Below the pieces are notes generated by a model, which was given only the letters and a program-made list of their open reading frames with translations, was not told where the DNA came from and did not search any database. A stretch of DNA of 13,267 nt from Tolypothrix carrinoi HA7290-LM1 (GTDB taxonomy: Bacteria > Cyanobacteriota > Cyanobacteriia > Cyanobacteriales > Nostocaceae). Of this stretch, positions 3,072 through 12,718 are shown in pieces. How positions within the stretch are numbered: position 1 is the stretch's first letter; every line of letters begins with the position of its first letter. The DNA lies in NCBI GenBank assembly GCA_019358935.1, contig JAHHIK010000161.1, positions 1 through 13,267 of the forward strand, read 5' to 3'. A program made the translations under genes and the position numbers.

Positions 3072-4193
3072 TTATAACACAAATTCCTCAGTAATTACAG
3101 CACCCTGAAAGCTGACTTCAACCTGAAACTGTTTGCCTACATTTTCACTAAATTCTAACTGAATGATATTATCAACTTTCCTCGCAGTGACTTCCTGACT
3201 TTCTGAGTCATAAGTGTTAGGATTAAGAGTCACTTTCAGCTTCAAAGCAGACGGTAGATATTCCTCATTGCCAGGTGACTCATTGTAAGGAATAACCTGT
3301 ACAAGCACATCGACTTCATTATCTTCCAACCGTTTTACATTGATAACTAAAGCTAATGTTTGACCATTTAACAATAGTCCAAAATCTAACTTTTTCGCCC
3401 CACAATGATAATCAAGTGACTTACTTCTTGCAGAACCCCAAGCATAGTTACTATCAAGCGTCTTCAGAATATCTTTGGTGGATTGCCAACCTTCTTCAAA
3501 AACTCCAAGCCACCAACTGCTCACGTTTACTAGCGCTTTATTAACGATGCTTGTAGTCTGGCTTAGACTTTGTATATCTGTATGATTAACCTCAGCTACT
3601 GATGGTAAAGGAATAGCAGTTGGTGACAATAAACACGAGTATAACAATAAGTTATTTATCTCAGAATCAAACCAAGAAAGCGGTAGCTGATAACAACTAT
3701 CAGATTTAGCTTCCAAATTAATTGATTGGCAATATTTAACCAGTTTATCGTAACGTAAAAAACCGTGAATATTTAATTTTTCTTCCTCTTCTAATACCTC
3801 AAGCAATACATAAAAATGAGCAATCATCTTTGGAGAATTGATGACTTCTTTGGGTACAGAGACAAAATCATCAATTAGGTTATCAACACTAATTAAACAA
3901 AGGTTAAACCCACCTAAAGTTAGATGACAAACAACATCAATCACATTAGCGCTGTCGGATTGAAATATCGAACAGTTATCTCGATTAATTTTGACATCTG
4001 GAATTCTTTCTCTCAGCCATTCTTCAAAACCAAGTAGCGCTAATGCATTTAAATAAATTTTCCACTGGTGTGTTTCGCTTAAGTTTCGGTCGCTAATTTC
4101 TTTAGCTGACTCAAAATGTTCCGGTTCCAGCCAAATAAGTTTTGGTGACAATTCTTGTCTCCAGTATCTTGAATAAATAGAGGTATTAATCAT
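3072..4193 (-). CDS. DUF1822 family protein
   Basis: WKIYLNALALLGFEEWL, HFYVLLEVLEEEEKLNIHGFL, VNVSSWW..FEEGWQS and the C-terminal beta domain (LVQVIP...YLPSALKL...IQLEFS...FQVEVS...ITEEFVL) match the cyanobacterial DUF1822 pattern. The gene sits directly downstream of a sigma-like gene, the usual arrangement. Confidence 0.85.
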   Translation of the reverse strand: MINTSIYSRYWRQELSPKLIWLEPEHFESAKEISDRNLSETHQWKIYLNALALLGFEEWLRERIPDVKINRDNCSIFQSDSANVIDVVCHLTLGGFNLCLISVDNLIDDFVSVPKEVINSPKMIAHFYVLLEVLEEEEKLNIHGFLRYDKLVKYCQSINLEAKSDSCYQLPLSWFDSEINNLLLYSCLLSPTAIPLPSVAEVNHTDIQSLSQTTSIVNKALVNVSSWWLGVFEEGWQSTKDILKTLDSNYAWGSARSKSLDYHCGAKKLDFGLLLNGQTLALVINVKRLEDNEVDVLVQVIPYNESPGNEEYLPSALKLKVTLNPNTYDSESQEVTARKVDNIIQLEFSENVGKQFQVEVSFQGAVITEEFVL

Positions 4194-4257: not shown

Positions 4258-5751
4258 TCATGCTGCATCTTTGATTGAATCATTAAGATAACGGCGTATT
4301 AGTTGAGCAAATAAGCTGTTTTTTTTCTGTTTTTTTCCGCTTTGTATTTCTGCGTGTGCATCTGTGAATGTTTTATTCAAAGCATAATTTCTAATTGAAT
4401 CAGCAACATTTTTTAGATAGTCTGGGTTAGTGGAAATTGTTGTTAATCGATATTTTGTAGGTGATTTGGAAATGTTGTTAATAAATTTTTCTTCTGTGCG
4501 ATACTGAACATTCTCCAGAAAGTTTTCTAATTTAAATATGCGTCTGGCTTGATACCAAGGTATCCCCCACAATTTACCAATCTCCCCTAAAGACTTATCC
4601 TCTTCGTAGTAAAGTTGCAAACCTTCATGGAATTTTTGAGCAAAACTTTTGTAACCTTTACTTTTTCTCAAACCTTCAATTTGTTGGTAAATCACTTCTG
4701 ATATCGCTTCATATAAAACCTCTTCAAATAAGGCATGACAATCCTCTTTTAATTGGTCTAGTTCAATTTCCTCTAGTCCGGTGTCAGTATAAAAACCTAA
4801 CTCTAGATTGGGAACATAGTCATTAATGGAGTTATCATACACTTCTATAGGTATTGTTTTGGGACTACCTGTTCTTTTATAAAGCGTATCCTGACGTAAG
4901 ATTTCTGCGATTCTTTTGAGATGATAAATTAGTTTTTGATGAGAATGAATGATATTTCGTTGCTGCAACAAATCGCGCATTTCTTGCAGTTGGTTTAGCG
5001 TAGGTTCAGAACAACGTCCTTTTTCATGTGAGTTGCGTCTGTCTCGACGATAGACTGCATGAAAGACCTCTACAATTTCGCGGTCTCCTTTTTGAAGATG
5101 CGGTTCCAGAGAACGGGGAATATGTCTACATAATAACGCGCAGTCACTGGGAGTCCTTACCCCCAACTCCCACAGAAATAACCTTAAATTTTGATTTTGT
5201 TGGGTTAATCTCCAAGTCCAATTATCTAAGCTTTCACTAGAACTTAAGGTTGGATTAAATTTTTGCAAAATTTCAACGCTAAAAAACTCTCCTCCTTTAG
5301 CTATTGGTCGAGTTGTGTCATCATGATTCAAGATAAGTTGAGTTTGCTCTTCACTATCCAACAGCACCTGTTCTTTACCATCGTCATTTAAAACGAATGG
5401 AAGCAAATCAATATAGCTAAAAGGGTTCTCAACTTGGGGTTTACAAGTATGAGAAATTTTTTTGCAGCTGATGAGAATTGTCTGAGATACATAGCATCTC
5501 AAACAAAGCCCAGCAAAAGCGCGATCGCGGATATCGTCAGCTGAACGAAACATTTTCCACACAACAGCTTGAACATGTCTGTTTTCTTCTGACGATAGTG
5601 TAGGTTGACTGGCTAACTTGGGAAATTGTACCCTGAAGAACTCCTGTGCTAAGTGGATTGTCTTGAGTTTGTAGCCATCTTTTAGCTTATTATATTCCAC
5701 TCTAGGAGAATCAATTATCCACATTATCCAGTATCTTGACGGTGCTACCAT
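4258..5751 (-). CDS. Conserved cyanobacterial DUF1822-associated protein with a C-terminal sigma-70 region 4-like HTH (putative alternative sigma factor/regulator)
   Basis: Long ORF (track: 4258..5820). Preferred start is ATG 5751 (MVAPSRYW), which has GAGGT upstream. Motifs: SRYW, AGLCLRCYVS, DLLPFVLNDDG, and HTH-like LQLYYEEDKSLGEIGKLWGIPWYQARRIF. Function is inferred from the HTH and gene context. Confidence 0.6.
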   Translation of the reverse strand: MVAPSRYWIMWIIDSPRVEYNKLKDGYKLKTIHLAQEFFRVQFPKLASQPTLSSEENRHVQAVVWKMFRSADDIRDRAFAGLCLRCYVSQTILISCKKISHTCKPQVENPFSYIDLLPFVLNDDGKEQVLLDSEEQTQLILNHDDTTRPIAKGGEFFSVEILQKFNPTLSSSESLDNWTWRLTQQNQNLRLFLWELGVRTPSDCALLCRHIPRSLEPHLQKGDREIVEVFHAVYRRDRRNSHEKGRCSEPTLNQLQEMRDLLQQRNIIHSHQKLIYHLKRIAEILRQDTLYKRTGSPKTIPIEVYDNSINDYVPNLELGFYTDTGLEEIELDQLKEDCHALFEEVLYEAISEVIYQQIEGLRKSKGYKSFAQKFHEGLQLYYEEDKSLGEIGKLWGIPWYQARRIFKLENFLENVQYRTEEKFINNISKSPTKYRLTTISTNPDYLKNVADSIRNYALNKTFTDAHAEIQSGKKQKKNSLFAQLIRRYLNDSIKDAA

Positions 5752-6421
5752 AGGTCTTGAAATTACCTCGCTTTTCATCAGATATGACATCAACAGCAAA
5801 CCTATTTCACCAGTGACCATTTTTTCTCAATGTTCTGGAGAGCTACATATATATATAGATTTTGGTTTTGTGAACTTATGCAGATGATGTTAGCGGTTGT
5901 CTTGCAAAAACTGGTATTAATCTGGTAGAAGTAGCAAAAATGCTAACTGCCTGAAGCCAAAGTCATCGCTTATGTGGCAAAAAAAGATTTCAAAAATAAA
6001 ATTAAAGTTGGCATTCATCGTATTTGTGACCAAAGAAATTTTTATCAAAGTCTTGGTTAGCAAGACTTTCAGCACTTGTACGGCTGTTGGTGACACCCGA
6101 TCTGCTATTGGACGATATTGGGCTAACACAACCCATACAAGTGTATAAGTCGATTGGACTTGAATCTATCTAAAAATAGAAGCAGGAAAAACAAGCAATT
6201 ATCTAGAGCTTTTCCTTCTGCTCAGAAGAATAGCTCAAATTCTAGTTTTTCTGTCAAACTGGCTGATTTTATAATCCAGCAAACAATGCTGTAAGCCAGT
6301 CCTGGAGCCGTATTGCCAATTAGAGGAAATGTCTAATATTTTTCATGCTTGATTACTTAGTCTTCAGACCAATTACTAGCTTAATCACTCCGAGAATTTC
6401 TTAACTAAGAGGTTATTAACT
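5752..6421. promoter_or_regulatory. Divergent intergenic control region (about 670 bp)
   Basis: Separates the head-to-head regulator block and effector cluster, so it should contain promoters for both. RBS AAGAGGT at 6407-6413. No -10/-35 elements could be assigned with confidence. Confidence 0.6.
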
Positions 6422-6829
6422 ATGAATCGTAACTTTATCTATCGCATTGTAGAACTCACTAATGCTAAACGTCGGTCTTCTGGTTTGCCAGAACTGAGAT
6501 TTAACCCTGTGTTAGCAGCAGCAGCACAGAAACATAGTGCAGACATGGCATTGGAGGACTTTTTCAGTCATAAAAGCCCAAATGGAAGCAAACCTTCAGA
6601 TCGTGCCCAAGCTGAAGGTTATCCATCAACCTATGTCGGTGAAAACATTTATGCAGGTGGTTCCACCCCAGAAAATGCTTTTGAAGGATGGATGAACAGT
6701 GAAGGACATCGCAATAACATCCTGAGTCCAAATTATCAAGAAATTGGAGTTGGTTACTACTATCTAGGCAATGATACAGGTAACGTTAATTACAAACATT
6801 ACTGGACACAATGCTTTGGCAAACCCTAA
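6422..6829 (+). CDS. Stand-alone CAP/SCP domain protein (PR-1-like), copy 1
   Basis: ELTNAKR, LAAAAQKHSADMA..DFFSH, GENI, GWMNSEGHRNNIL, EIGVGY, YWTQCFG. RBS present, no signal peptide. Confidence 0.95.
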   Translation: MNRNFIYRIVELTNAKRRSSGLPELRFNPVLAAAAQKHSADMALEDFFSHKSPNGSKPSDRAQAEGYPSTYVGENIYAGGSTPENAFEGWMNSEGHRNNILSPNYQEIGVGYYYLGNDTGNVNYKHYWTQCFGKP

Positions 6830-6917
6830 TCAAAGACGTAATTTAGTTGAATTTAACTAAATCACCGCTTACTGACAAATCATTAAAATCTATTTCTACA
6901 TTTGGGAGGTTGTTACC

Positions 6918-7328
6918 ATGAGCCAAGAATTTATCAATCGTGTTGTAGAACTTACTAACATCGAACGTCAGAAAGCAGGTTTACCACCATTGAGATTCAA
7001 TGGTCGGTTAGCTGTAGCCGCTCAAAAGCACAGTGTAGACATGGCAATGCGGGACTATTTCAATCATACAGGAGAAGATGGTTCATCCCCATTTGACCGC
7101 ATTAAAGCTACAGGCTATCGATACTCCCGTGCAGCAGAAAATATTGCAGCAGGTCGGTCTACCCCAGAAGATACCGTTAAGGGATGGATGAACAGCCCAG
7201 GACATCGCAAAAACATTCTGACTCCAGATTATAAGGAAATAGGGGTTGGTTATTATTTCTTAGCTAAGGATATGGGTGACGTTAATTACAAACACTACTG
7301 GACACAAGTTTTTGGTACACCCTTGTAA
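6918..7328 (+). CDS. Stand-alone CAP/SCP domain protein (PR-1-like), copy 2
   Basis: Same CAP motifs (AAQKHSVDMA, AENIAAG, WMNSPGHRKNIL, YWTQVFG). RBS GGGAGGT at 6904-6910. About 61% identical to copy 1 by hand count (83/135, ungapped). No signal peptide. Confidence 0.95.
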   Translation: MSQEFINRVVELTNIERQKAGLPPLRFNGRLAVAAQKHSVDMAMRDYFNHTGEDGSSPFDRIKATGYRYSRAAENIAAGRSTPEDTVKGWMNSPGHRKNILTPDYKEIGVGYYFLAKDMGDVNYKHYWTQVFGTPL

Positions 7329-7417
7329 ATGATGAGGATGGGTAATATGACCGCACCTAGCACGCTAACAAGTACTCCTTCACTCTTATAAATCTCACTT
7401 GAACAGAAGATTTTGTT

Positions 7418-8410
7418 ATGTCTCAATTTCTTGGTATTGCTTTTCAGCCTTATGTTGGTCGCTGGACTGGAACTCCTCCAAACGCCACGACTCCGTGGTG
7501 GAATTCATACAGCCAGCAGGATATTGTCCGTATGCTTGAGGTCATTGCCTCCAAATTCAACAAAATTTGCACATATGGGATGGGTTATGCAGGCTATCAC
7601 CAGCCCACAACACCTTGGGATCAAGTAGATTCTAACTGTCGTGTTGCTGTTGCTGCTGCTCAGTTGAATCAGCAGAGGGGTCAGGTTGTTATTGAGGTAG
7701 CTCAAGGAATTTATCAGCAACTGCCAAACGCGGCACTACAACAGGCAGAAATTAAAGCTGCTTTTTCTGCGGCTCAAGCAGCGAACGCTGTTTATCCCAA
7801 TACGGTAACTTCTTTTGTATTCACAAATGAATATGTAGTTAACGCAGAGACAACCAATGCTGTCAACGCGATGATTGTAGCTAACAAGCAGAAAGCTAGA
7901 AGCCTGAATATCAAAGTGGGCGTGCGATCGCATACCTTTGGAAATATTGCCAACCCAAACAGCCCGTTTTACAACGAGTTGAAAACCCTCATTCAGAATT
8001 GCGATTTTATCCTTTGCAACCTTTATCCGGCTTTGAATACAGCCACTCCGATTGAAGGTGTAAATGGGGTAGCTCAAGCCTTCAATACTATTAAAACAGC
8101 TGTTGCCGCAATTAAGCCGCAGTGCGAAGTCATGATTGGCGAAACTGGATGGTCTTCCCAAGGAATTAGCTTTAACAACACAGCCAACAATGTACAAAAT
8201 CTTCTTGCCTACTACAAGGCAATTGATAAGTGGGCATTTGAGCAGAAAGTAACAACTTACCTTTTTGAGGCATTTGACGAGCCTTGGAAAAGCAACCAGA
8301 ACGCCCAAGTTCCTCCAGAAAACCCTTGGTCTGGACCAAACGGTGCTGAGGGACACTACGGTCTGTGGTATCTCAACGACCAAGGAAAGTATACGGAGAA
8401 AAGGGCGTAA
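7418..8410 (+). CDS. Glycoside hydrolase family 17 (beta-1,3-glucanase/glucanosyltransferase; PR-2-like)
   Basis: Acid/base motif FTNEY, nucleophile motif VMIGETGWSSQG, DFILCNLYP, YLFEAFDEPWK and EGHYGLW are GH17 hallmarks. No signal peptide or TM segment is visible. Confidence 0.9.
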   Translation: MSQFLGIAFQPYVGRWTGTPPNATTPWWNSYSQQDIVRMLEVIASKFNKICTYGMGYAGYHQPTTPWDQVDSNCRVAVAAAQLNQQRGQVVIEVAQGIYQQLPNAALQQAEIKAAFSAAQAANAVYPNTVTSFVFTNEYVVNAETTNAVNAMIVANKQKARSLNIKVGVRSHTFGNIANPNSPFYNELKTLIQNCDFILCNLYPALNTATPIEGVNGVAQAFNTIKTAVAAIKPQCEVMIGETGWSSQGISFNNTANNVQNLLAYYKAIDKWAFEQKVTTYLFEAFDEPWKSNQNAQVPPENPWSGPNGAEGHYGLWYLNDQGKYTEKRA

Positions 8411-8437
8411 CTTAATTGTGGCTTCTGGTCTTTTTAC

Positions 8438-8650
8438 AACTCAATTATTGAAAGGAGAAAATCATGACAGCTGCTCAAGCATCTAGCCAAACTTATACTG
8501 TCCAACCTGGGGACACGCTATTTTTGATAGCCCAAAAAGTCTACGGGGATGGCAATCGTTGGCGTGAAATTTATGAAGCTAATCGTGGTGTAATAGGAGG
8601 TAACCCAGAGCAGATTCAAGTTGGGATGGTACTTGTTATCCCAGGACTTG
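8438..8650 (+). repeat. Duplicated leader+LysM DNA cassette, copy A (copy B at 9107-9319)
   Basis: Ungapped near-identity at an offset of 669 bp, covering the RBS region and a 65-nt exact match (8521-8585 = 9190-9254). Confidence 0.9.
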
Positions 8651-8982
8651 GTCAGCCGAATCCCAATCCCCCTAACACATTAAATCTAGAAGCTACATTC
8701 TATAGCAGGGAAGAAACACAAGGACATCCGCCTGCAACAGGTGTACATGGAGTTACATTGCAAGAAGCCCTAAGCGGTAGAGGGCGCGTACAGTGTGCTG
8801 TAGACCCAAATGTTATTCCCCTGCTAAAAGAGTTCACCCTGATACTATGGGACGGTAGGCAGGTTCCTGCATCTGCGTTAGATAAGGGTACGGCAATTAT
8901 CGGTAATAGAATTGATCTATTTGTCGATACCATCCAAGAGGCAATTAATTTAGGTAGACAGCCAGTCCAGGCAATTCTTTGA
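8464..8982 (+). CDS. LysM + 3D (Asp-Asp-Asp, MltA-like) domain protein
   Basis: N-terminal LysM ([18 protein letters not shown]...[11 protein letters not shown]), Pro/Asn linker, then 3D motifs [32 protein letters not shown] with all three Asp present. RBS AAAGGAG. Confidence 0.9.
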
Positions 8983-9106
8983 TTGATTGTTAAAGAATTT
9001 CAATTTCTCTAATACTAGGAACCAAGTTAGTGACATGCAGACACTAGCATGGACTCTCAATAATTCTTGAATCAAAGAACCACTGACTATTCGATATATT
9101 CCACAA

Positions 9107-9319
9107 AACTCAACTTTTGAAAGGAGAAAATCATGACAACTGCTCAAGCATTTGGTCAAACTTATACTGTTCAATCTGGAGATACACTGTTTTTGATAGC
9201 CCAAAAAGTCTACGGGGATGGCAATCGTTGGCGTGAAATTTATGAAGCTAATCGCAATGTAATTGGAGGTAATCCCGAACAGATTCAAGTTGGAATGGTA
9301 CTTGTTATTCCAGGGCAAG
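9107..9319 (+). repeat. Duplicated leader+LysM DNA cassette, copy B
   Basis: Matches copy A (8438-8650) without gaps at an offset of 669 bp. Confidence 0.9.
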
Positions 9320-9921
9320 GTCAACCTGGTAATGGTGGCGGCGGCGCTGGTAAAGGCAATTTCCAAAAAATGCTCGAAGCACTGGGAGCATTTGAATCGG
9401 GGTTTCCATCAGGAGACCCAAGACAATACACCTCTGAAAACACACTAGGGTTTATGGGCAAGTACCAATTTGGAGAACCCTTGCTAATTGACCTTGGTTA
9501 CTACAAAGCCGATGTTTACTATGGAAACGGTGCTGACAAAAATTACTGGCGGGGTACTTGGACAGCAAAGAGAGGCATTAATAGTAAAGAACAATTCAAA
9601 AATTCCCGTGAAGTTCAAGAAGCTGCAATTCGTGAGGCTTTTAATCTCAACTTGCAACGTGTCAACGGTGCGCTTGGGGCGCAAGGACAGTCTATCAACA
9701 ATTACCTCGGTCAGCAAAAGACATATAACGATAGAGGAGTGCCAAAAACAGTCACTATTACCCTTTCCGGTATTCTAGCCGGAGCACATTTGAGCGGTCC
9801 TTTTGGAGTAGCTAACCTTTTATTGAAAAACGAAGTCCCTCATGATGAATTTGGTACTTCTATGCTCCGGTATGTGGAAGAATATGGCGGTTACAATGTT
9901 TCGCCAGCAGATTTCTCCTAG
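9133..9921 (+). CDS. LysM + lysozyme-like/lytic transglycosylase-like domain protein
   Basis: LysM nearly identical to that of the previous gene, then a Gly-rich linker. LGAFESG (catalytic E-S motif), GFMGKYQF (GxxQ motif) and LAGAHLSG (AxxAYNxG-like) fit the lysozyme/SLT superfamily. RBS AAAGGAG. Confidence 0.75.
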
Positions 9922-10076
9922 AAGTTTATAGATTGCCTGTACTGCTCCCGCCAAAACTCAAGTATTGCAGACATAATAAGGCAGCGTCACGAAAGTTAGA
10001 ACCGAGGGGCGTGTTACTTTGTGCTCCTCTCTTGGAAAACCGCAATCAATCCCTGTGTAAAAGCAGGAGTCCGACA

Positions 10077-11009
10077 ATGTTACAATCTCCAACACTCCAT
10101 ATACTGTCGCTCTTTTCATCTGCCCTGTCCGGAGTTTCTGCCATTGCAATAAGAGCAGTGACCTCCGCAAGAACCACGCTTTTAGTAATATCACTAACAT
10201 TCTTGCTGTTTTTTCCCAGTGCCTCTGCGGCGATCGCACAAGAATCAAGAGCCACGAGCCATACGACTCGATTGTCAGTTACCAATCAGTGTAACTTTCC
10301 CGTCTGGATGGCAACAATACCTAATGCCAATATAACTCCTCTATCGGATGGTACTGTTAAACTATCTCAAGGTCAGTCACACGATTATTCCATCCCCAGT
10401 AGTGGTTGGGCAGGAAGATTCTGGCCAAAAGTCGGCTGTGACTCTAATGGCATGAACTGTGCGGCAGGACAAGCAGTACCACCATGCCCTCCATCAGGTT
10501 GTCAACCTCCAGCTGACACCAAAGTTGAAATTAACTTTCCGAACCTCTCTTCAAAAGATAATGCTTGGTATAACATCAGCCTAGTAGACGGATACAGCCT
10601 TCCTGTCGAGATTAAACCAAGAGGTGGGGAGTCAGGTTCATGTATAACAACCAATTGTAATCTTTCTCTGAATAGCTGTCCTCAAGATGAAACACAGGGT
10701 TTAGGGGATTTGAGGGTCTTCAATGGCGGTAAAGCCGTACAATGCCTGTCTCCGTGTAAAAAATGGAACTATCCCCCTCCTTTTGGTCTAGGAAAGCCTG
10801 AAACCCAACCGCCCGGTATCGATTTATGTTGTCCATACAACGATGTCGAGCGGTGTCGCACGGGACCTGTCGTACAAACAAAGTTTGTCCAGACTGTACG
10901 CAAAACATGTCCTACTGCTTATAGTTTCGCATATGACGATGAAGCAGGTTTGCACAGTTGTCCAACGCAGAAGAGCTTTGATGTGACGCTTTGTCCAGTA
11001 GGACGTTAA
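10077..11009 (+). CDS. Thaumatin-like protein (PR-5-like), with predicted signal peptide
   Basis: Start ATG 10077 with AGGAG at 10065-10069. Hydrophobic segment LLVISLTFLLFFPSASAAIA/Q. Motifs VTNQCNFPVW, WAGRFWPKVGC, PPADTKVE, YNISLVDGYSLPV, CLSPC, CPTAYSFAYDD, FDVTLCP. The mature part has 16 Cys. Confidence 0.93.
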   Translation: MLQSPTLHILSLFSSALSGVSAIAIRAVTSARTTLLVISLTFLLFFPSASAAIAQESRATSHTTRLSVTNQCNFPVWMATIPNANITPLSDGTVKLSQGQSHDYSIPSSGWAGRFWPKVGCDSNGMNCAAGQAVPPCPPSGCQPPADTKVEINFPNLSSKDNAWYNISLVDGYSLPVEIKPRGGESGSCITTNCNLSLNSCPQDETQGLGDLRVFNGGKAVQCLSPCKKWNYPPPFGLGKPETQPPGIDLCCPYNDVERCRTGPVVQTKFVQTVRKTCPTAYSFAYDDEAGLHSCPTQKSFDVTLCPVGR

Positions 11010-11025
11010 AGCTGAAACGTCAAGA

Positions 11026-11052
11026 GTGCGATTGCTTGAAGGGCAATCGCAC
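11026..11052. repeat. Perfect 10-bp hairpin with HIP1-like arms
   Basis: GTGCGATTGC-TTGAAGG-GCAATCGCAC, 16 nt after the thaumatin stop codon; no clear U-tract follows. Confidence 0.75.
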
Positions 11053-11185
11053 GAACTTCTTGCCATAGGTGTCCTTGTAATTGGTCGATTGTGACAGTAG
11101 CTGTGTGACAGAGCTTTGGTTACAAATCGCCTTTCATGTCATTTTTCACTTAGCAATAAAACTCAACTTCAAAGAAGAGAAAATC

Positions 11186-12175
11186 ATGAGTAACAATGAA
11201 GACGCAACCAACTTTGATGGATTACTGAAGAGTAACGATATTCGCACAGGTTTCATATCTGGAGTTACCTTTAAGAATAAGGCAGTTCAATACTCGGTCG
11301 TCGATGGACTAGCCATTTTTGAAGGCTGTATCTGTCTTGGCACCGTTGAAGAAATGGAGAAGAAAACAGCTGCTATCCGGACTGGGCAAGATATTGAAGA
11401 AGATGCTGGTACACGCGGTCTGTTCATCCCTGGACAACAGTACCGGTGGACTAATGGTATTGTGCCGTATGAAATCGATCCTAATCTCCCCAATCAAGAG
11501 CGCGTAAGAAATGCGATCGCTCACTGGCAAGAGAAAACCCCCATCCGGTTCGTGAATCGAACAAGCAATAATGCGAGTCAGTATCCGAACTACATTCGCT
11601 TCCGACCTGCCGATGGCTGCTGGTCTGTTGTAGGTATGCGAGGGGGCAAGCAAGATATTGGTCTAGCCAATGGTTGCGGCTTGGGTGCTACAATCCACGA
11701 AATTGGTCATGCATTGGGGCTTTGGCACGAACAAAGTCGAGAAGATAGGGATAGACACATTCAAATTCACTGGCAGAACATTGAGCCTGACCACCAGCAT
11801 AACTTTAACCAACACATCAATGACGGTGATGACCACGGCGCTTACGATTATGACTCGATCATGCATTACGGATCGACAGCTTTTTCTAAAAACGGTCAAC
11901 CAACAATTACAACCGTTTCATCTGGAAGACCCATCGGGCAAAGAAATGGTCTTAGCAATGGCGATATAGCTACTATCCGATTTCTCTATCCAGGGACAAC
12001 TCCTCAGTTACGTCCGTATACCATAAAACAGGGAGATACACTTTATTTAGTTGCTGAACGAGAGTTAGGTGATGGCAACCGTTGGCGTGAAATCATGAAA
12101 TCAGCCAATGGCGGCTCTTTTACAGAACAGGAGGCTAATAATTTGCAACCGGGTCAGGTAGTCTACCTTCCTTAA
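11186..12175 (+). CDS. Astacin-family (M12A) zinc metalloprotease, LegP-like, with C-terminal LysM
   Basis: HEIGHALGLWHEQSREDRD (HExxHxxGxxHE), Met-turn SIMHY, WTNGIVPY, GCWSVVG, IGQRNGLSNGD. C-terminal [26 protein letters not shown]...LQPGQVVYLP is a LysM. ATG 11186 is preferred over TTG 11081. Confidence 0.93.
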   Translation: MSNNEDATNFDGLLKSNDIRTGFISGVTFKNKAVQYSVVDGLAIFEGCICLGTVEEMEKKTAAIRTGQDIEEDAGTRGLFIPGQQYRWTNGIVPYEIDPNLPNQERVRNAIAHWQEKTPIRFVNRTSNNASQYPNYIRFRPADGCWSVVGMRGGKQDIGLANGCGLGATIHEIGHALGLWHEQSREDRDRHIQIHWQNIEPDHQHNFNQHINDGDDHGAYDYDSIMHYGSTAFSKNGQPTITTVSSGRPIGQRNGLSNGDIATIRFLYPGTTPQLRPYTIKQGDTLYLVAERELGDGNRWREIMKSANGGSFTEQEANNLQPGQVVYLP

Positions 12176-12209
12176 CTTGAGGATGTCTCCGTATAACTGC
12201 TAGGCTAAA

Positions 12210-12307
12210 CTCAGTAGTCAGGAATCGAAAACTCCCATCCGAAGAATTAAGTTTTCAGCCATCAATTCGCTGGCAAAACTTCTCCTGTCAATTTTCGGAC
12301 TACTGAG
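12210..12307. repeat. About 98-bp element bounded by inverted repeats (MITE-like or structured RNA)
   Basis: CTCAGTAGTC (12210-12219) and GACTACTGAG (12298-12307) form a perfect IR. An inner stem pairs AAGTTTT-CAGC (12249-12259) with GCTG-gc-AAAACTT (12269-12281). Confidence 0.5.
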
Positions 12308-12349
12308 ACTCGGATTTGAGGCAGCTACTCTGTTTTTTAATAAACGCAA

Positions 12350-12718
12350 ATGTCGTCAAATAATGCGTCAAAGCTCGTAACAGGCGAAATCCTTTTCTCT
12401 GAAGACTTGGATTCATTTTCTGGAGCCAAAGTGAATGTGTACCTTGAAGATGTGAGTTCTCTGGATGCTCCTTCTAAGATTATCGCCAAACAAGTGATTC
12501 CTGATATCTCCCATGAAGTGGGGACTGAGAATCAAGTCAAATTTGCCCTAAAAAGTGAGACTTCAAATAAACAGGCAAGTTATTCAATCCGCGTACACGT
12601 CTCTGTTCATGGAGATGAACAAATTCACCGTGGAGATTACATCACTATGGAGAGCTATCCAGTTCTTACATTTGGGTATCCAAATCAGGTATCGGTACGT
12701 GTGCGAGAGGTGAAGTAG
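12350..12718 (+). CDS. YbaY/YscW-like (pilotin-like) domain protein without lipoprotein signal
   Basis: VTGEILF...GAKVNVYLEDVSSLDAPSKIIAKQ...YSIRVHV...ITMESYPVLT matches the YbaY-type L.DVS..DAP motif. The protein has no Cys and no lipobox. Confidence 0.8.
   Translation: MSSNNASKLVTGEILFSEDLDSFSGAKVNVYLEDVSSLDAPSKIIAKQVIPDISHEVGTENQVKFALKSETSNKQASYSIRVHVSVHGDEQIHRGDYITMESYPVLTFGYPNQVSVRVREVK

Follow-up and report, generated by a model that had tools for sequence, protein, structure and literature searches.

The pathogenesis-related (PR) proteins of plants comprise CAP proteins (PR-1), GH17 (PR-2), GH19 (PR-3) and GH18 (PR-8/11) enzymes, and thaumatins (PR-5). The known defence islands of prokaryotes target phages and plasmids. 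Here we describe a cluster of eight genes from the cyanobacterium Tolypothrix carrinoi HA7290-LM1, located on contig JAHHIK010000161.1, which was analysed over its complete length of 13,267 nt (the window), together with a family of related clusters in other cyanobacteria. The cluster probably constitutes a stored lytic arsenal, PR-like in action, directed against filamentous fungi or oomycetes, and bacteria.

Anti-fungal defence in cyanobacteria was described mainly in terms of metabolites and a few single enzymes in the available text of a review (PMC10300848), which includes fungicidal glucanases and a chitosanase of Anabaena and Calothrix that inhibit fungi and oomycetes. LysM-GH19 fusions were found mainly in Nostocales and lichen-forming species, and a symbiosis-modulating role was proposed for them (Orlando 2021, PMC8547705). 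In a study that also discussed heterotrophy of symbiotic Nostoc, chitinase was reported to be enriched in the symbionts of cycads and scarce in those of lichens, and an antifungal role was suggested (PMC11319675). A chytrid-Planktothrix transcriptome covers buoyancy and nutrient genes, and such enzymes do not appear in the available part of that report (PMC13391722). Single LysM-GH19 genes and the enrichment of chitinases in symbionts are already published; our literature search, with supplements outside its scope and subscription papers poorly covered, found no description of the cluster as such.

Eight open reading frames (ORFs) occupy positions 6422-12718 of the + strand, and their Pfam matches agree with the co-oriented genes named in an initial annotation of this contig. 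The first two encode CAP/SCP proteins (6422..6829, PF00188, E 1e-26, with His-Glu-His motifs; 6918..7328, CAP Pfam E 1e-28), which form a tandem duplicate with 61% amino acid identity. They are followed by a predicted GH17 beta-1,3-glucanase or transglucosylase (7418..8410; PF00332; candidate catalytic Glu138 and Glu242), a LysM-3D protein of the predicted lytic transglycosylase type (8464..8982; PF01476 and PF06725), and a LysM protein with a lysozyme-superfamily domain assigned by predicted fold (9133..9921; candidate catalytic Glu at the end of helix 1). The block ends with a thaumatin-like protein (10077..11009; PF00314, E 1e-35; 16 Cys), an astacin (M12A) with an N-terminal extension and a C-terminal LysM (11186..12175; PF01400, E 4e-54), and a YbaY/YscW-family protein, the predicted astacin inhibitor (12350..12718; PF09619, E 7e-9). 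All products except the thaumatin are leaderless. For the thaumatin and astacin genes, ATG 10077 and ATG 11186 are likelier starts than the upstream TTG codons chosen at first, as judged from purine runs resembling ribosome-binding sites, and from alignments.

The seven intergenic gaps measure, in order, 88, 89, 53, 150, 155, 176, and 174 nt, a spacing that is operon-like, and does not by itself prove a single transcript. In a scan of the window, promoter-like matches (13, compared with 13.8 expected) and terminator-like matches (3, compared with 6.2) were at chance level. The grouping of module types exceeds chance: 10-kb segments of the other contigs of this genome held one module type in 34 of 6173 cases, and two types in none (0/6173). 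The GC content of the block genes (0.39-0.48) is close to the mean of the 7.96-Mb genome (42%), the left flank is AT-rich, the HIP1 site GCGATCGC occurs about once per kb in the genome, as is typical of cyanobacteria, and named Nostocales hold close homologues of the window proteins. Catalytic motifs are intact in the GH17, astacin, 3D, and CAP proteins. A 220-nt 5′ piece, containing the ribosome-binding site and LysM, is common to the LysM-lysozyme and LysM-3D genes with 89% identity, which shows recent shuffling of modules.

The wider occurrence of the cluster was surveyed in 389 genomes of the family, using GH17, GH19, and this 3D type as queries, and flanking DNA was fetched around the matches; the named GTDB set and the numbered-locus set overlap, being one collection, and their counts are not summed. 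GH17 was found in 20 of the 389 genomes, GH19 in 44 (of which about four are weak, partial matches), and the 3D type in 39, with 14 of the 20 GH17 genomes holding GH19 too. Among the 57 genomes matched by a GH17, GH19 or 3D query, 47 have a same-strand block with at least two module types, and 45 have one that includes a fungal-wall-type enzyme, in support of the initial annotation, which would have been refuted had the genes not co-occurred in other genomes. At least two fungal-wall-type families share one block in 26 of the 57, and at least three in 18. Because the genomes are related to one another, no P value is given; tests anchored on GH17, 3D, or GH19 are cleaner, since the loci examined supplied part of the module list. 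Window-type partners were present in the best block of 15/21 GH17 loci, the 3D gene shared a block with a fungal-wall-type enzyme in 29/39 3D genomes, and a partner lay within 5 kb of GH19 in 32/38 newly fetched loci (two of 40 were dropped, having no local anchor), with 82/82 partner matches on the same strand. Matches to GH87 obtained by tblastn in L063, L066, and L076 have no matching ORF, and ORF-level counts were therefore taken as the main ones.

Thaumatin was present in 4/61 relatives, and 51 of its loci were identified across all GTDB species. Four full-length loci at 78-92% identity (L010 to L013) all have partners, two of them (L011, L013) being shorter, and a truncated locus (L059) has none. 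The Cyanomargarita locus (L010) reads CAP-CAP-LysM3D-LysM-GH19-thaumatin-LysM-GH18-astacin-YbaY, and that of a lichen-derived Rhizonema record (L012) reads GH64-3D-CAP-GH17-thaumatin-GH30-LysM-GH16. In other phyla, none of 46 non-cyanobacterial thaumatin loci, mostly from myxobacteria, had a partner in a tblastn search with a query set compiled before GH64, GH30, and GH16 were added. Outside the family the cluster is rare: full-length GH19 was found in 3/376 genomes of the phylum, one of them, from another family, having GH19-GH17-CAP-GH64 (L131). A plasmid copy of the cluster, surrounded by transposases, was found in Fischerella. The genome of the window holds a second, degenerate locus (L005:5646-13407, G000:C73), which is partly broken and contains a sigma-like/DUF1822 pair, an inserted reverse-transcriptase gene, a split LysM-CAP, a LysM-lysozyme, an M12 peptidase, and then an IS607-like element. 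The cluster is a patchy, modular, and mobile family, of which the window is one version.

This distribution bears on whether the genes remodel the cell's own sheath, akinete or heterocyst envelope, or assist hormogonium release. LysM-3D and LysM-lysozyme may act on the cell's own wall, and the heterocyst envelope polysaccharide has 1,3 links. Heterocysts, however, are near-universal in the group, whereas each marker occurs in only 5-11% of the 389 genomes; the gene content of the cluster varies freely, and no cyanobacterium is known to produce chitin or alpha-1,3-glucan. Such a role appears highly improbable.

Chitin, beta-1,3-, beta-1,6-, and alpha-1,3-glucan are the main polymers of filamentous fungal walls, and the modules of the cluster family, taken together, would cover them. 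By Pfam, the clusters of relatives contain LysM-GH19, LysM-GH18, GH64, GH30, a GH87-type alpha-1,3-glucanase, malectin-GH26, polysaccharide deacetylase, GH25, a CVNH lectin, and B-lectin-, crystallin-, and propeller-CAP fusions. The cluster GH16 matches beta-1,3(4)-glucanases and laminarinases in the PDB, and the best PDB match of the cluster GH30 is 5NGK, an endo-1,6-beta-glucanase acting on fungal glucan (PMC5481569). With GH18/GH19 chitinases, GH64/GH16, GH30, and GH87 in the relatives, the anti-fungal expectation of the initial annotation gained support.

Several recurring members lack clear names. A leaderless 220-aa protein (L071:13328-14005 and six relatives; L127:8108-9001), which has no Pfam match and contains an FDIEE motif, recurs at the start of GH64-CAP-GH17 clusters, and was counted as GH18 from the motif alone. 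Among the others (L079:1586-2272, L079:3070-3765, L079:3905-4393, L070:8545-9387) are a second GH16-like type, assigned by eye and included in the GH16 counts, a divergent thaumatin-like protein (E 0.001), a small protein encoded next to 3D and deacetylase genes, and an HExxH protein.

A similar enzyme set could serve feeding, with the cluster acting like a polysaccharide-utilisation locus (PUL) that lets the cell obtain carbon and nitrogen from the remains of fungi, from laminarin, or from chitin. GH17, GH16, and GH30 serve feeding elsewhere, GH17 with GH30 (and GH16) is a laminarin-feeding set too, and heterotrophy of symbiotic Nostoc is under discussion in the available text of PMC11319675. 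In a metagenome scan, 77/79 GH17 matches were distant GH17s, which were used as a control; GH30 lay near 16 of these 77 loci, as in glucan-feeding loci, and this, like the laminarin set, counts against an arsenal. None of those loci had CAP, 3D, LysM, thaumatin, or GH19. Neighbours of related loci were scanned in two sets. The first comprised 45 proteins from GH17 loci, drawn from part of 107 neighbour groups together with some module proteins; the second comprised 62 proteins from later loci, covering 58 of 79 groups and four more proteins. Among these 107 proteins, which are part of all neighbours, no TonB receptor, SusD, sugar permease, GH3, or GH20 was found, the uptake or exo-type exceptions being one ABC ATPase and one fucosidase, and Pfam revealed no sugar-uptake or exo-glycosidase gene in the window. 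The enzymes are, moreover, leaderless by the heuristic described below, and CAP, lysozyme-fold, and protease-inhibitor genes have, to our knowledge, no place in PULs. Feeding is quite unlikely to be the function.

Enzymes of these families are normally secreted. A hydrophobic leader was absent from 7/8 window proteins and from 225/236 distinct cluster proteins, a pattern unlike the signal-peptide secretion of plant PR proteins; the leaders were assessed not by SignalP but by a hydrophobicity heuristic that caught 5/6 hand-picked likely secreted controls. Leaders were present in thaumatins (6/6), lysozyme-type proteins (3/5), YbaY (1/7), and GH87 (1/11). The missing leaders are one of two features that the initial annotation lacked, the other being the predicted protease-inhibitor pair. 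A conserved cysteine pair, present in 57 LysM fusions of related loci and absent from the window LysMs, hints that those fusions may work in an oxidising place. The enzymes were also considered as cargo of an injection system, a candidate that was rejected; the contractile sheath gene PF04984 was not found in this genome, which is 99.65% complete. Storage, followed by release upon penetration or lysis, is the simplest model of location, with leaderless export as the alternative.

Storage inside the cell would also suit defence against grazers and predators: chitinases, proteases, lectin-CAP fusions, and lysozymes kept in the cytoplasm would act once the filament is eaten by a nematode, microarthropod, or amoeba, or on bacteria entering the cell. 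The leaderless lectins with which fungi defend themselves offer an analogy for this storage, and the B-lectin-, crystallin-, and propeller-CAP fusions, as well as the two peptidoglycan-type hydrolases of the window, are consistent with it. The alpha-1,3-, beta-1,6-, and beta-1,3-glucanases of the clusters, however, have little target in animals, and an anti-grazer function is very unlikely.

The predicted inhibitor pair was found at the end of the block. The astacin motifs HExxHxxGxxH and SIMHY (the Met-turn) are present in 5/5 copies, and the YbaY gene adjoins an astacin of this type in 5/5 astacin loci. The astacin scores over the cut-off of NCBIfam LegP (NF045530), the model of a Legionella effector delivered by a Dot/Icm system, which reflects likeness of the catalytic domain and is a family label only, and its C-terminal LysM falls slightly under the Pfam cut-off (18.8 compared with 20.9 bits). 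Modeling of the astacin-YbaY complex gave an ipSAE of 0.92, compared with 0.00 for the best control; the ipSAE mark is reached by 116/157 solved and 2/215 mismatched pairs, and is approximate here, the alignments being own-built. The runs share at least 97% of contacts, with a partner pLDDT of at least 87. In the predicted complex, the Leu38-Asp39 loop of YbaY contacts His171, Glu172, and His175 of the zinc motif, such that the loop of a neighbouring gene's product sits in the active-site cleft, as in gene-linked inhibitors. The model supports binding of the YbaY-like protein to the astacin, whose active site it is predicted to plug.

The only PDB homologue found for YbaY, 5wec (‘Lipoprotein’), also has the DVS..DAP loop; conservation of Asp39 is therefore family-wide, and provides no specific evidence for pairing with astacin, and recall of a like complex by the predictor is conceivable. 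A search of plasmids for YbaY gave no match, and none of the papers listed in a search on YbaY as a protease inhibitor was relevant. A second, N-terminally extended YbaY copy follows the leaderless one in two loci (L086:12315, L087:5125), with a hydrophobic leader scored in L087.

We consider it probable, as stated above, that the cluster is a stored lytic arsenal, a reading that draws on the direct observations that the genes keep their co-location and strand, belong to the named families, and have intact catalytic motifs and mostly no leaders, and that the cluster occurs patchily and on a plasmid. Its products would attack fungal or oomycete walls, through beta-1,3-glucan in the window, and through chitin, beta-1,6-, and alpha-1,3-glucan in the relatives. 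LysM-3D and LysM-lysozyme would attack peptidoglycan, and could help to open the lysing cell, while LysM, crystallin, and lectin modules may hold the enzymes on their target. The thaumatin would leave the cell by Sec; the other products would stay inside, and come into contact with the attacker once a hypha or rhizoid has penetrated, upon cell lysis, or via leaderless export. The YbaY-like protein would block the astacin until release, and a divergent sigma-like/DUF1822 pair, or elsewhere an AraC-type gene, probably induces the block. The patchy distribution and the plasmid copy suit conflict genes. The arsenal reading is further favoured by the lack of uptake genes among the scanned neighbours, by the presence of the closest named thaumatins in fungus-feeding arthropods, and by the enrichment of chitinase in symbionts of cycads and its scarcity in those of lichens (PMC11319675). 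A more specific version, namely an inducible, horizontally moved anti-fungal defence island, in which enzymes that have lost their leaders are stored inside the cytoplasm alongside a dedicated protease inhibitor and are freed by invasion or sacrificial lysis of cells in the filament, is possible but less likely than not.

Alpha-1,3- and beta-1,6-glucanases suit filamentous Dikarya better than chytrids, and the named carriers are mostly terrestrial, lichen, or benthic taxa. Chytrids, which the initial annotation had placed among the targets, are not specifically supported: nothing in the data points to them, and the genome of the window lacks GH18 and GH19.

Several observations weigh against an arsenal of this kind. 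The genome of the window has no GH18 and no GH19, and fungal-wall types account for 2/8 window genes. Leaderless enzymes would need a further route to reach a fungus outside the cell. The canonical acidic cleft of thaumatins is R-E-D-D-D, and that of the window thaumatin is R, E, N, D, D, with Asn at one usually acidic position, where Asn is found in 4/6 cluster copies and Asp in 2/6. No fungal-wall-type partner was found in 10/39 3D genomes, and no partner within 5 kb in 6/38 GH19 loci; in addition, the genomes are related, and part of the module list came from the same loci. The rich version carried by the lichen-derived Rhizonema is awkward for pure antagonism. In a symbiotic reading, the enzymes would prune the fungal partner of a lichen or send it signals, or protect a plant host such as cycads and mosses, instead of defending the cyanobacterium itself. 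Besides Rhizonema, the symbiosis role proposed for LysM-GH19, mainly of Nostocales and lichen-forming species (PMC8547705), and the chitinase enrichment in cycad symbionts argue for this reading, whereas the scarcity of chitinase in lichen symbionts argues against it (both PMC11319675, available text). Such a function overlaps mechanistically with the arsenal. Named carriers include free-living taxa (Cyanomargarita, Heteroscytonema, Fischerella), which also speaks against it, and management of symbiosis remains unlikely as the function of the cluster.

The window CAPs scored best with the bacterial YkwD-type model, under its cut-off. The GH17 match to PF00332 (E 5e-9, 36.6 bits compared with a cut-off of 28.2) covers only residues 233-326, the C-terminal third, and both catalytic motifs (E138, E242) are kept in 17/17 full-length homologues. 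Its closest PDB matches are 6fcg, a non-plant GH17, and a glucanosyltransferase, whereas a plant glucanase matches at E 0.026; the matches comprise both hydrolase and glucanosyltransferase types. The window thaumatin has the PF00314 domain, 16 Cys, and, by the heuristic, a signal peptide.

The second domain of the LysM-lysozyme protein has no Pfam match, and was modeled by AlphaFold2 with a pLDDT of 94. A PDB sequence search with this domain was empty, and Foldseek gave no match at E<=0.001. The top VIA rows were lytic transglycosylases and lysins (MltC, Cj0843c, MltE, and the phi6 lysin; Z 7.5-7.8), the best alignment having a Z of 7.8 and an rmsd of 3.7 over 124 aligned residues, and no row reaching Z 8. 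Homologues occur within phage tail-lysozyme genes, and the candidate catalytic Glu is kept in 33/45 aligned homologues. The label ‘lysozyme-like’ given at first is supported by the confident model, by these nearly all lysozyme-like rows (Z <= 7.8), and by the phage homologues. A LysM-lysozyme homologue with 63% identity in Nostoc sp. PCC 7120 (BAB75186.1; P0232/P0241) offers a tractable entry point. A metagenomic locus (L134:6089-7339) encodes a natural fusion in which part of a GH17 is joined to a LysM remnant and the lysozyme-like domain, with a relaxase-like neighbour identified by eye.

Upstream of the cluster, three genes lie on the - strand. A 520-aa sigma-like protein (4258..5820; weak Sigma70_r4, E 0.087), divergent from the cluster, is a candidate regulator, with a DUF1822 protein as its probable partner (3072..4193; PF08852, E 2e-53). 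Downstream of DUF1822 is an AT-rich gene for a dynamin-like, CrfC-related GTPase (673-2949); none was seen next to the other clusters examined. In the fetched stretches, the sigma-like/DUF1822 pair lies near the cluster in seven loci (the window, L005, L007, L070, L083, L086, L088), and two copies of the 520-aa type were found in this genome, each flanking a LysM/CAP cluster. The model of the 520-aa protein has low confidence (pLDDT 57), and its best Foldseek rows were sigma factors, none of them significant. ECF-type sigma and DUF1822 genes were described together in caspase/EACC2 conflict neighbourhoods of multicellular bacteria (Kaur 2021, PMC8195603); by this analogy, and from the weak matches, the protein is a sigma-like candidate. 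A small AraC-type regulator recurs near cluster genes (L008:14715-15311, L075:8536-9060, L124:8156-8692, L106, L122, L123, L125), and may be the alternative to the sigma-like pair in other loci.

Caspase genes were found near 7/59 anchored loci, and caspase, CHAT-TPR, and STAND/WD40 genes often flank clusters (L061, L084, L097, L102, L107, L109, L122, L123). A link to programmed lysis is possible, though such genes are common in these genomes. PatG/subtilase genes of the cyanobactin type directly adjoin small clusters (L063:6184-8121, L091:11956-13977, L113, L116).

The initial annotation described the cluster as mirroring plant PR proteins, which holds for the protein families. In a quick tree that had no plant rows, the thaumatins of cyanobacteria group as a single clade (17 rows, SH-aLRT 98), and their nearest named relatives, from springtail, gnat, midge, rokubacteria, and myxobacteria, share 47-55% identity. 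Plant PR-5 structures match the window thaumatin far more weakly (best E 3e-22), GH17 is likewise nearer to non-plant proteins, and the CAPs are nearest to the YkwD type, below its cut-off. One GH19 type is closest in the PDB to plant class I/II and reconstructed ancestral enzymes. These mixed nearest relatives of thaumatin, GH17, and GH19 suggest a kit assembled from several sources and converging on the PR set, and the likeness to plant PR proteins would mostly be convergence. The arthropod thaumatins (P0027, P0059, P0063, P0073, P0074, P0080) belong to springtails, fungus gnats, and gall midges, and the cluster of P0071 includes a copepod; springtails and fungus gnats are fungus-feeding. 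Transfer of thaumatin genes between bacteria and arthropods, in either direction, is possible.

Protein-based defence of cyanobacteria against fungi becomes directly testable with a transferable block that covers the main polymers of the fungal wall, and the block is relevant to which organisms can live alongside fungi in soil crusts, lichens, and cycad roots. The cluster family is also a source of LysM-tagged candidate glucanases and chitinases, and the YbaY family gains its first functional hypothesis. If the stored defence-island reading is true, the YbaY/YscW family would provide a new class of inhibitors of zinc peptidases, and the island would be a bacterial innate-immune arsenal against eukaryotes.

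The parallels with described systems are partial. The LysM-GH19 fusions of Nostocales described as group CHIT 11 are very probably the cluster chitinases, which would place the latter in that group; the fusions were treated as single genes in the available text, without cluster, leaderless state, or partners (PMC8547705), and the window has no GH19. The Anabaena and Calothrix hydrolases of the review are M20-like and GH3-like, single, secreted, and unclustered, unlike the present enzymes (PMC10300848). The potempins of Tannerella forsythia are small beta proteins, each encoded beside its peptidase, with a loop wedged into the active-site cleft, as predicted here, and PotA uses aspartate-switch elements (PMC9890683); potempins, however, are OB-fold or hairpin barrels and lipoproteins, whereas the protein described here is a leaderless member of the YbaY/YscW family, with its inhibition predicted. 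The caspase/EACC2 systems share ECF sigma and DUF1822, and caspase and CHAT genes often flank the present cluster, but LysM, thaumatin, and chitinase do not figure in the main text on those systems, as far as it is available (PMC8195603). The cluster belongs neither to the plant PR system nor to the PULs, because defining features of each were looked for and not found, namely signal-peptide secretion of most products for the former, and sugar-uptake genes in the window and among the scanned neighbours for the latter. A Bacteroidetes PUL for 1,6-beta-glucan likewise has a clustered GH30 (and GH16/GH17) acting on fungal or algal glucans, but such PULs carry SusC/D, GH3, and lipoprotein leaders, none of which was seen in the scanned cyanobacterial loci (PMC5481569, available text). 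Five families are common to the cluster family and the plant PR proteins, CAP, GH17, and thaumatin in the window, and GH18 and GH19 in relatives. Plant PR proteins, however, are dispersed and secreted, whereas the cyanobacterial genes are clustered, mobile, and mostly leaderless, and extend beyond the plant set with GH64, GH30, GH87, 3D, the lysozyme fold, and astacin.

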